Below, piece after piece: positions 398 through 62,149 of a stretch of 64,000 nucleotides of DNA (position 1 is the first letter of the stretch; each line of letters begins with the position of its first letter). This DNA comes from Eledone cirrhosa (lineage: Eukaryota): contig OZ024741.1 in the NCBI GenBank assembly GCA_964016885.1, positions 382,726,001 through 382,790,000 of the forward strand, given 5' to 3'. The translations under genes were made by a program, and so were the position numbers. The notes below the pieces were generated by a model. That model saw only the letters and a program-made list of their open reading frames with translations. It was not told the DNA's origin and did not search any database.

Positions 398-1400
398 AAC
401 GAAGGAAATGTGGTAAGGAACCAGGTGGACCATAACGCACCAAAGTACTCAATACTTGAGGTAGTAGAGTGGGTAATAGGAACCAGTAAGACCCCGACAG
501 CTGAGCTCAAGCCGTTTCGACGGTATAGAGATTGTTTTAGCAAGAAGCTAACGGCATTCTATAACATATATGCGACTATAACGTCAAGATGGGAAAAGTA
601 GTTAACGAAAGATTTAGGAAAAGTAACTCAAACTCATCTCAAAAGAGAATCAGGATATAAATTCATCCACAGAATTTAGTAAAATCCAGGGAAAAATCTA
701 TAGACCTTTAACTCATGATAAAATAAAGTTTGAAACACTTATCCTTCAATTTGGAATAACATCAAATGCTCCGTATAGTCTTAAAAGACTATTTCATGAA
801 AACTTTCAGTGGAGATGGTCACGGTTGGAGTTCATTCATCAGCAGAGCTCAACAGAAACCAGGGCTCTCACAGTAATATAATCCGAAAAAGGGAGTTCTA
901 AAACTGGCTAGTTTGCCTTCATGTGTATTTATGAAAAAGCACATGAGGAAAAAACGGGGCTAGTGACGTCAGGATGGAAGTGAATGTTTATTTACAAGAA
1001 ATAGCAGTCAAATACATTCTGAATAAAAACTCTACAAAAGAGTTCAGCAAAATAGCAATAATTATCACAGTTTTTATGAAAAAAACCGGGATTAGTCACA
1101 GATAGTTTAAGCACTCTAGGAAAAGAATCCGAGTATAAATATAAATGAGAGGTATAGAGATTGTTTTAGCAAGAAGCTAACGGCATTCTATAACATATAT
1201 GCGACTATAACGTCAAGATGGGAAAAGTAGTTAACGAAAGATTTAGGAAAAATAACTCAAACTCATCTCAAAAGAGAATCAGGATATAAATTCATCCACA
1301 GAATTTAGTAAAATCCAGGGAAAAATCTATAGACCTTTAACTCATGATAAAATAAAGTTTGAAACACTTATCCTTCAATTTGGAATAACATATCCTTCAA
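398..1400 (-). mobile_element. Non-autonomous PLE-like/retrozyme element(s) in a (TA)n tract with ~630 bp direct repeat
   Basis: 522-760 repeats directly at 1151-1390. 398-523 recurs at 46463-46590 and inverted at 32705-32842. 522-750 recurs at 32440-32665. Flanked by TA runs and contains an HHR. Confidence 0.7.
768..848 (-). ncRNA. Type I hammerhead ribozyme
   Basis: Minus strand reads GCUCUG-CUGAUGA-AUGAAC..GUUUUCAU-GAAA-UAGUCUU UU AAGACUA-UA-CGGAGC. All three stems pair and the core is canonical. Confidence 0.85.
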
Positions 1401-1739
1401 TTTGGAATAATATATATATATATATTTATGTGTGTGTGTGTGTGTGGTGGTTGTCTACTCTTTGTAGAACTTAGCCGCAACTTGCACCTATATTTGCTAA
1501 TTCTTAGCTTGAGATCTTAATCGACTTTTGATCCCTGAAAGGCGTTTGAAAATCTGACTGTAATGACGTGTGTGTGTGTGTGTGTGTGTGTGTGTGTGTG
1601 TGTGTGCATGTGTGTGTGTGTGTGTGTGTGTGTGTGCGCGTGTGTGTGTGTGTGTGTGTGTGTGTGTGTGTGTGTGTGTGTGTGTGTGTGTGTGTGTGTG
1701 TGTGTGTGTGTGACTGTGTGTGTGTTTTGCAATTTTTGG

Positions 1740-59561: not shown

Positions 59562-62149
59562 AGTGACTTAAGTCCCCTACTGTTTGAAGCGCTCAACCCG
59601 TGTGGGAGCTAGATATATTTTGAGTATATGTTGGTTGTATACCAACACTTCAGTATGCAGGCTATTCTCTATTTATTATTTATTTTCTGTTTTCTTCATG
59701 TTTTCTGTTTTCTTCATTTATTACCTTATATTTCTTCATATACATGGAAGAACAGCCTCACCACCAGCACCACGGGAGATGGTGGCAGGAGCGACGAAGA
59801 AAAGACACACACAGATACTTCTAAATTGTCAGCAGCAGCAAGACATAAGCTGACCACAACACCAACAACACTACCGAAATAATGGTAGAGGTCAAATGTA
59901 CGTAACAATAGCAAACAAAAACAGTACAGGGAGCCTCGCCCCAGAAAGAATATCTATAGACTTCTGACTGAGGAATGCTCTCAAAACTGACCAATGGGAA
60001 GGTTGACATTTTTTTGTTGTTTTCTTCCATCACCACCTTGTTCCTTCTACCACTTTATCAATTTTTTAAGCTAACTCCAACAATAACAACACTACCAACA
60101 CAAGAATTGAGGACAGATGTAACTAACAATAACAAGAACAACAACTACAGATTGGCTTGCCTCAGAACGAACTTCTATAGACTTTTGAATGAGGAATATT
60201 CTAACAACTGAGCAATGAGAGGAGAAGAGGCCCTTTGACGTTGAAATTCGTTTGTTTGAATTCATATGATTCCAGTTCCTCAGTGAGATAACAACCCAAC
60301 CAGGAACTGGGCATATCGGAGTATTGACAATATTATACACCTAAACAACATATGTATTTTCCATACGACACTAATTCAGACTGCCTGAAGAGGTCACAGC
60401 CAAAGATGGCTGTTACCGATATATATCGCAGTAATGAACCGAGCTAAATTTAAAACATTTGAGTTTTTATTTTACCTTATTTATATATATATATATATAT
60501 ATATATATATATATATATATATATATATATATATATATATATATATATATATATATATATATACATATATACATATACATATATATATATATATATATAT
60601 ATATATATATATATATATACATATATATATATATATATATATATACATACATATATATATATATATATATATATATATATATATATATATATATATATAT
60701 ATATATATATATATATATATATATATATATATATATATATATATATATATATATATATATACATATACATATATATATATATATATATATATATATATAT
60801 ATATATATATATATATATATATATATACATATATTTATTAAAATAACAGATTAAAGCTTAAGCAAAGAATCGCTGCTTTCACCCTTAATGGCATCTTCTG
60901 GAACTATAAAAAATCAATCTGTAAACGCAGAAGTGAATATTTTGAAAAACGTTGCAACCGAAGGAAAACAGGAAGACGATACTTTGGTTCGTGAAGTCGT
61001 TCCCTGCAATGAACGGAAAAAAGCGAAGATAATATGTCGTTATGTGGAACTATGAGAGATATAAATAAATAAATAAATAAGTATACAAGTACAATAAGAA
61101 CAAACACATATAAACAAACACTAGTAAACAAAGATAGAATACAACAACCAAAACACATACACTAAAACGCGAACACACACACCAGACATTATACACACAC
61201 GCAAACGCATGCGCAGAGACGGAGACAAGAATAAATAAATAAATAAAATAAAAACAGGCGTAGACATTACGATACCATACAATAGGAGGGAACATAATAG
61301 TACAACTGATGATGTTGCGGATGTGCAACGAAAGAACTTTGATAGAATATATATATATATATTTATATCTGTATTTTTAACCGTCGGTCAGTCAATGATA
61401 AACGTTGATTGCCAAATAAATTAACTTACGGAGATATAAAAGATAGAGAGCGAAAAAAAACCAAACACTGTGTGTGTTCTGTAATTATTTTTGGCAAAAT
61501 TATATTACAACAATATGACCCTTATCAAGTATAACACTATATATATATATATATATATATATATATATATATATATATATATATATATATATATATATAT
61601 ATATATATATATATATATATATATATAGTTAGAGAAGCAAAAAATTGCTTATTGTGATCCAGTTTTTGGTTAAGAAAGCCAGTTTCATGGATGGTTTCAA
61701 CGTACAGTTAGGGGTAACTCCATAAGTTTGTAAGAATTCCGTTCAATCTTGGAGTATAAAGTATAACAGAGAAAACACAGGTAAGCATTAAGCGAAGGAT
61801 TTTATCCAGGTATTTACGACCGTTTCATTGGTAAGTGCAACCTTATATTGCTATACTGCAAATAGCAGCCACTCAATTATAATTGTTGTTCACAGTCCAA
61901 ATTTTCAAAATAGTAAGTAAGTTACTCTTGAAATAATTCTTAATATATAGAGAAAAACATTTATTTGGAATTGTATTTACTAGTATATAGAGAGAGGATT
62001 CAGAAGGTGAGGGGACAGACGGAATAGTATAGAGAGAGAGGAAGGGGGAAGAGGTAGGAAGTAGTGTTTTCTCTTTTATACTATATATATATATATATAT
62101 AATCTCTATTACACTTGCATTTCTGATTTGCCTACCTGTTGAGTCATTT

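Follow-up and report, generated by a model that had tools for sequence, protein, structure and literature searches.

How do short hammerhead ribozyme (HHR) units that carry no open reading frame (ORF) come to lie in TA microsatellites as inverted and direct arrays joined head to head? The question is raised by a 64,000-nt stretch of the Eledone cirrhosa genome (3.0 Gb; contig OZ024741.1), hereafter the window, which is AT-rich and holds ~87 runs of (TA)6 or longer. The window is a mixture of decayed Penelope-like elements (PLEs) of the Hydra clade, their truncated HHR-bearing ends and at least eight ORF-less hammerhead units of 310 to 629 nt in (TA)n. The retrozyme units were likely copied by a PLE enzyme from what was likely a circular RNA, and the insertion footprints speak with unusual clarity for twin priming on a single circular RNA.

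Hammerhead ribozymes in the window and beyond

A strict scan for the type I hammerhead motif returned 21 matches in the window, of which a single array accounts for 15; 20 copies of the window shuffled locally by dinucleotide gave no match. An outside sample of 800 kb (16 blocks of 50 kb, 14 at round coordinates and 2 adjoining the window) gave 45 matches against 0 and 0 in two shuffles, so the excess over dinucleotide-shuffled sequence expected by an earlier, sequence-only reading of this DNA holds both within the window and outside it. The 700 kb distant from the window contain 42 matches, which extrapolates to roughly 10^5 HHRs genome-wide. The Rfam search of the window missed nearly all of these HHRs; its one HHR match, at 2693-2764 (HH9, 34.9 bits), did not reach the gathering score of 52. 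Rfam matches to miRNAs in the window were set aside as microsatellite noise. The stretch GCCGGUCC bears a resemblance to the twister motif; a twister-like reading of it was dropped, as it gave no Rfam match.

The sequence-only reading had placed HHR folds at 18 sites. Each site was aligned with its family copies, and 14 HHRs were upheld at the family level (768, 2704, 4511, 5255, 6108, 23254, 26678, 26846, 29847, 35088, 35747, 45787, 52058 and 55592). The HHRs at 4511 and 45787 have a U3:A8 core, and those at 26678 and 26846 are intact in the family and mutated in the window copies. At 23254, a CAGAAGA core is present in 9 of 9 aligned copies, drawn from 33 distinct ones; cleavage activity of this HHR is doubtful. 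Two sites are doubtful as HHRs: stem I at 2134 is without pairing in its subfamily, and 44192 is canonical in its GAAA-palindrome-UC half alone (fold z -0.13). Two were rejected, 31648 (fold z -0.26, motif not conserved) and 47682, a 610-nt unit without a core (fold z +0.79). One HHR family absent from the earlier list was added, at 31451 on the minus strand. Covariation supports the folds of the 321-nt family. Across eleven of its HHRs plus one from the 310-nt family, related sequences for which shuffle counts are not probabilities, 93% of cells are paired and two-sided changes occur in 7 of 12 pairs; controls with slid partners are 22-38% paired.

Retrozyme families and PLE ends

The 18 sites sort as eight retrozyme families, six PLE ends or relatives of such ends, three HHR families that could belong to either group (26678, 26846 and 35747) and one HHR-less tandem. 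To place them, the genome was searched with 11 elements, of which the best 39-40 candidates each were used together with the 800-kb sample; the loci are top BLAST matches and are thus biased toward young, full-length copies. The retrozymes of the window and the HHR-less tandem are as follows.

522..1391, minus strand: 629-nt retrozyme, 1.38 copies, HHR core 842; a single-start, mostly single-arm family; its 3' end is replaced by a 126-nt element (398-523)
2505..2974, plus strand: 466-nt retrozyme, inverted arm 2505-2597, direct arm 2594-2974, HHR core 2711
3993..4645, minus strand: 321-nt retrozyme, 1.4 copies (minus) and an inverted arm; the stems of its U3:A8 HHR covary, and the unit is a homologue of the 310-nt one
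5995..6340, minus strand: piece of a 436-439-nt retrozyme, HHR core 6147
29414..30115, plus strand: 551-nt retrozyme, 1.27 copies, HHR core 29853
34905..35650: 515-520-nt retrozyme, two arms, HHR core 35158 (minus)
45541..46439: 592-nt retrozyme, 1.18 copies (minus) and an inverted arm, U3:A8 HHR 45871
47446..50503, plus strand: 610-nt ORF-less tandem, 5 heterogeneous copies, no HHR core, one fixed 3' end in TA
50557..51835, minus strand: inverted arm of the 310-nt retrozyme, with 4.13 copies; its outer end, at phase 65 (site A), adjoins (TA)n
51859..55357, plus strand: direct arm of the 310-nt retrozyme, with 11.29 identical copies and a type I HHR in each (first core 52064, GUA site, stem III palindromic); its outer end, at phase 91 (site B), adjoins (TA)n

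Five of the families consist of ORF-less head-to-tail units, of 310 nt (52058), 629 nt (768), 466 nt (2704), 551 nt (29847) and 592 nt (45787), and occur as multimers; three more, also ORF-less and self-closing, have units of 515-520 nt (35088), 436-439 nt (6108) and 321 nt (4511) and occur as 1.x copies. All eight have three features of non-LTR retrozymes, namely, a type I HHR per unit, a short dispersed tandem unit and no ORF, and 0 of 20 other insertions of the 310-nt family contain an ORF. The 610-nt unit (47682) is likewise an ORF-less head-to-tail repeat and lacks the type I HHR of that class; a tRNA search of the window found none, and a reading of this unit as the tRNA-bearing type was discarded. 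The geometry of direct and inverted copies described earlier, with periods of 310-629, is borne out for nine listed families. A "311" period at 5255 is not part of it: this spacing includes a 104-nt TA run and is incidental. Nor are all families unrelated, as had been supposed, since the 310- and 321-nt units share 65% identity over 391 nt (E 2e-37) and the 310- and 466-nt units have the HHR region in common (E 3e-5).

The PLE-derived features and the remaining HHR elements of the window are as follows.

1924..2400, plus strand: old element with an HHR core whose stem I does not pair; 70% similarity to the 3' end of a PLE of CCHH type with C-terminal EN
4657..5697: Hydra-clade PLE pieces; ORF N-terminus 4657-5163 (minus), pLTR copies with HHR cores 5261, 5565 and 5572
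22737..23360: two-armed, 5'-truncated Hydra-clade PLE end with the CAGAAGA-core HHR
26291..26784: two-armed element of a family with an intact GUC HHR; window copies mutated
26816..27029, minus strand: HHR family, core mutated in the window
27301..29013, minus strand: 23254-family PLE; GIY-YIG 3' part, 3' UTR and HHR in one piece
31300..31573, minus strand: the added HHR family, core 31451
31627..31974, plus strand: TA-flanked element without an HHR; it follows a PLE ORF in one sampled copy
35680..36000, minus strand: HHR element, core 35825
36234..37319, plus strand: 5'-truncated PLE ORF, RT then GIY-YIG, CCHH-type residues
38500..44431, plus strand: whole decayed Hydra-clade PLE; inverted arm 38500-38983, ORF remnants 39054-41434, then 3' UTR, pLTR with the atypical half-HHR (44192) and tail
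55445..60475, minus strand: whole decayed Hydra-clade PLE; ORF remnants 59561-56893, inverted arm 59663-60475, 3' pLTR with HHR core 55643 plus tail

Four sites are clearly 3' ends or pLTRs of autonomous PLEs. In most of 13 other loci listed, a PLE ORF immediately follows the 5255 HHR. For 23254, the window and three sampled copies show an unbroken stretch of about 1.7 kb that leads from a GIY-YIG domain into the element. The PLE at 38500-44431 has site 44192 as its 3' end, with colinear sequence at five other loci, and the PLE at 55445-60475 terminates 3' in 55592. On one case, 31648 would also be a PLE end, and 2134, by its 70% similarity to the 3' end of the second PLE type, is probably related to one. 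The sequence-only reading had proposed a class of non-autonomous ribozyme elements parasitizing PLEs. That view is supported for 8 of the 18 sites, where units loop back on themselves and contain no ORF, and gives way at the six PLE ends or relatives and at the two sites that are not HHRs (47682, and 31648 from among the six). The opposite outcome, in which every family is the pLTR of an autonomous PLE, does not fit these eight families, which are ORF-less and self-closing in the loci sampled.

In a fuller form of this alternative, all families are 5'-truncated pLTRs of autonomous PLEs, and unequal crossover enlarged their tandems in place, as in the satellite route of a recent preprint (bioRxiv 10.64898/2026.07.22.740005). 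Such an origin holds for the ends at 5255, 23254, 44192 and 55592, and the 310-nt HHR resembles the 5255 pLTR HHR in its core and stem II. Past their 3' start sites, however, the eight families re-enter the unit rather than an ORF, and dispersed arrays end at the same two phases. Crossover should moreover spread variants over several units, whereas in the 310-nt family none of 51 within-array variants recurs (235 units, 20 loci; about 11 of them fall at one terminal-junction position), which argues against growth by unequal crossover and contradicts this explanation for that family. As an account of all the families, we regard it as very improbable.

Affinity of the PLEs

In the window PLE ORFs (5255, 23254, 44192 and 55592 families), RT precedes a C-terminal GIY-YIG. 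The Hydra motifs RWK/RWR, DKT, CxCX5C and CxxC/CxH around E and N occur in the window ORFs and in loci L235 and L238, as read by eye from translations of fragments that are partial (the EN part only for 23254); Pfam did not recognize the Hydra ORF of L238. The pLTR HHR is canonical in the 5255 and 55592 families, has a variant core in 23254 and is atypical in 44192. In the published description available to us, the Hydra clade combines RWK/RWR, DKT and CxCX5C with a C-terminal EN, HHRs and almost invariable (TA)n targets (PMC8557442). Naiad PLEs have an N-terminal GIY-YIG EN and no canonical HHR. The Naiad PLEs suggested earlier are rejected as the driver on both counts: wherever a window ORF has both domains, its EN is C-terminal and its ends bear HHRs. 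The driver of the retrozymes is therefore likely to be the Hydra clade, a putative assignment made by motif rather than by tree. No autonomous PLE with the 310/321 start-site module was found in the genome sequence sampled, so the mobilizing family is assigned by signature only.

The insertion footprint

A TA-adjoining end was defined as one with at least 6 nt of TA within 6 nt. By this measure, 137 of 154 outer ends (77 loci) adjoin (TA)n against 6.9% of random positions, and the enrichment for TA flanks proposed earlier is thus confirmed. Retrozyme insertions are inverted plus direct multimers whose 5' ends are scattered and joined head to head. Their 3' ends are not scattered: each two-armed family has two fixed 3' ends, 26-170 nt apart, at phases of about 65 and 91-96 in the 310-nt family, 376-381 and 450 in the 466, 435 and 6 in the 551, 526-533 and 107 in the 592, and 441 and 515 in the 515. 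Most start sites open with TATAT-like bases. Both ends could be classified at 56 two-arm retrozyme loci, of which 55 end once at each fixed site and one is A+A; there are 75 two-arm loci in total, 19 of which have an end outside the defined sites, and the count omits the 126-nt and 31451 families, whose references are clipped. None of 40 5' ends lies within 10 nt of the HHR cut. The 629- and 610-nt families have one start site each, and an inverted arm at 2 of 39 and 0 of 40 loci listed, respectively.

Where the two flanking TA runs of an insertion in a single-armed family differ in length, the longer one is on the 3' side at 27 of 33 loci (sign test, p 3e-4). Filled sites have more TA than the size-biased background (median 19 nt). 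The 3'-side excess is at most suggestive of the TA lengthening proposed earlier; deletion of the 5' target or a preference for long tracts would give the same pattern. A search for uninterrupted flank pairs, the empty sites for the 77 insertions, found none.

A probable common template for both arms

In the window, the two arms of the 310-nt locus are 100% identical over 1,279 nt. Such identity could be produced if inverted arrays were assembly or long-read artifacts. We consider this scarcely credible, since the two sides of 17 of 19 two-arm loci differ both in their flanks and in their fixed end phases, and since loose ends that pass into TA at site B are also present in an independent run. 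Across 19 two-armed loci of the family, arms of the same locus differ at 3 of 5,321 positions in total, against a median difference of 0.7-1.4% between loci (4-6% for two loci). At seven loci, the arms are identical and carry a haplotype found in no other sampled locus, and 0 of 44 unit-level variants are present in both arms. A shared haplotype, no recurring variants and 5' ends away from the HHR cut together favor repeated copying of one monomer, that is, a circle, in both priming events. The sequence evidence for one putative template is strong for the 310-nt family only, whose multimers appear to have been made at insertion and not by later satellite expansion. In older families, the arms differ by 2.0% (551), 2.3% (592) and 0.2% (466), and several arms are no nearer to their partner than to other loci.

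Recurring variants do occur in other arrays, at 3 of 7 in L146 (629-nt family) and 7 of 18 in the window 610-nt array, which suggests multimeric templates there. It could be that PLE priming from two strands generally used linear multimeric transcripts of homogeneous parent arrays, or two RNAs from one active locus, with HHRs and circles incidental. The recurring variants are what such templates would leave, the HHR-less 610-nt unit also spreads as multimers, and HHR cleavage is dispensable for insertion by the PLE Poseidon PAc in vitro (PMC11167929). Young arrays are, besides, nearly homogeneous, so that a multimer template would leave few traces. Against this, the locus-private haplotypes fixed in all units of both arms at the seven loci need a bottleneck of one unit, and the 44 unit-level variants are neither mirrored between arms nor repeated. 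We hold linear templates to be unlikely, while giving them more weight than either of the explanations above.

No sequencing runs recorded as RNA were listed with the 310-nt unit. In two runs of unrecorded type, the unit forms one 340-nt contig (310+30) running into its own start; this fits a circle and a collapsed tandem equally and is evidence for neither.

A proposed mechanism

We think it probable that a single circular RNA serves a Hydra-type PLE enzyme as the template for priming from both strands of the target; we infer cleavage, circles and the pairing of enzyme with template from the genome sequence. Read-through transcripts would be cut by the HHR and then ligated into monomer circles. 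An RT-GIY-YIG protein, probably dimeric, would nick both strands of a (TA)n tract, and the two 3'-OH ends could prime at start sites A and B of one circle, often helped by 2-10 nt of TATAT-like microhomology. Both cDNAs would run round the circle until their free ends join, giving TA-[inverted n-mer][direct m-mer]-TA.

We speculate further, at somewhat less than even confidence, that the tandem-plus-inverted insertions of PLEs arise by twin rolling-circle priming: a dimer nicks both (TA)n strands, its RT sites start at two fixed positions of one ribozyme-made circle and copy it many times, the RT may add TA repeats while priming, and the ~10^5 HHRs in dozens of families would be its record.

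Relation to known systems

The retrozyme class and its link to PLEs are already published; the footprint evidence is new as far as the literature was searched. A search of openly accessible papers and preprint main texts for TA-targeted two-armed retrozyme multimers or same-haplotype arms found none. In the text available to us, Cervera and de la Pena (2020, PMC7229834) describe animal non-LTR retrozymes as low-GC tandem units of 150-450 bp, demonstrate circles in coral, mussel and axolotl, and propose PLEs as mobilizers and a circRNA as the template of tandem cDNA. The families described here resemble these in their type I HHR and in having no ORF and no LTR/PBS/PPT, and differ in their two fixed ends, inverted arm, (TA)n targeting and units of up to 629 nt; the main text of that paper uses neither "inverted" nor "microsatellite". 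The circles demonstrated there are putative here. Li, Clavereau and Pollet (bioRxiv 10.64898/2026.07.22.740005), in the main text of their preprint, argue from co-occurrence and pLTR similarity, mostly in vertebrates, that retrozymes are non-autonomous PLE derivatives, and suggest local tandem amplification. Our results agree in the PLE origin, in many families per genome and in forms from monomers to multimers, and differ in that the 310-nt family appears to be multimeric at insertion; the main text of the preprint contains no junction analysis. The available text of an octopus repeat paper (PMC13282606) does not mention ribozymes.

Compared with the Hydra-clade PLEs as described in the available text of Craig et al. 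(2021, PMC8557442), the ORF motifs, HHR, (TA)n targets and PLE-wide inverted arm with a one-sided tail recur here. Unlike those elements, the retrozymes have no ORF, and tails are 26-170 nt rather than 30-40. In vitro, two internal RT start sites of Poseidon PAc define the tail, and both target strands are cut and extended (Frangieh et al. 2024, PMC11167929); two start sites, use of both strands, AT-rich targets and a predicted dimer are shared with the mechanism proposed here. PAc belongs to a different clade, and its start sites have no target homology and are not tied to a strand, whereas short stretches of TATAT-like microhomology mark most sites here, and the two kinds of site are used once each per insertion. 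The HHRs themselves are like the minimal HHRs of PLEs (Cervera and de la Pena 2014, PMC4209133) in the palindromic helix III, the bulged base after A9, the U3-A8 covariant core and paired HHRs on opposite strands. Unlike those, several carry long stem II insertions, and the CAGAAGA (U4A) core is not met in the available part of that study.

The 16 window-derived family references with matches span about 5% of the 800-kb sample, which gives these families weight in the repeat annotation of this genome. Their footprint extends the known one-sided PLE "tail" to retrozymes. According to the parts of the literature consulted, the way in which PLEs make tandem and inverted insertions has not been defined (PMC8557442), and both the enzyme and the template proposed for animal retrozymes are hypothetical (PMC7229834; bioRxiv 10.64898/2026.07.22.740005). 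The 310-nt family offers a young 310-base substrate whose start sites are mapped and whose target is known, and candidate Hydra enzymes lie in the same genome, a combination that makes both the PLE-insertion question and the retrozyme-enzyme question directly testable.

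Nested and TA-flanked elements

Between 47446 and 55399 the window holds nested insertions, in which an array of 310-nt units lies within the TA run immediately 3′ of the end of the HHR-less 610-nt tandem array. Further repeats are as follows.

33295-34881: 570-nt unit without an ORF, direct and inverted copies
42283-42709 and 61634-62064: TA-flanked 430-nt element, two copies, 95% identity
398-523 (minus), 32707-32838 and 46466-46588: copies of a 126-nt element
13411-13563, 15330-15502, 22357-22537, 25250-25437, 32200-32385 and 62816-63011: SINE-like family, ~180 nt
23372-24061 (minus), 18379-19390, 20765-21376 and 63399-63770: other retroelement ORF fragments

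The 570-nt unit, which is additional to the sites named in the sequence-only reading, has two ends flanked by TA and contains CTGATGA, with the GAAA half absent. One copy of the 430-nt element sits within the 3′ UTR of the decayed PLE at 38500-44431, and HHR scans of this element detected no ribozyme. The dispersed SINE-like copies are 78 to 89% identical, and the four ORF fragments include a DUF6451 LINE 3′ end and LINE-like EN/RT remnants; one further PLE N-terminal piece is possibly among them.

Outside the window, the B-block sample (L051-L110) contains several more HHR families, none of them in the window list. Examples are a 508- to 516-nt repeat whose stem III is CTAG-UA and a group in which the palindromes are TATGTA/TGCGCA.

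The 126-nt element and a motif near start sites

The 126-nt element is very abundant (~50 matches in the 800-kb sample) and has small inverted arms and two fixed 3′ ends spaced 78 nt apart; it is probably the extreme 3′ end of some PLE or retrozyme. Its reference is one of 6 among 19 family references, the others being 610, the 629-nt retrozyme and the Hydra-clade PLE ends 5255, 55592 and 44192, that carry YWGAGYRC 20 to 104 nt 3′ of the first start site (putative priming position), against a background of 0.16 per kb for a motif defined post hoc. Its orientation is sense in all six and antisense in none, and YWGAGYRC may represent an RT-binding element.
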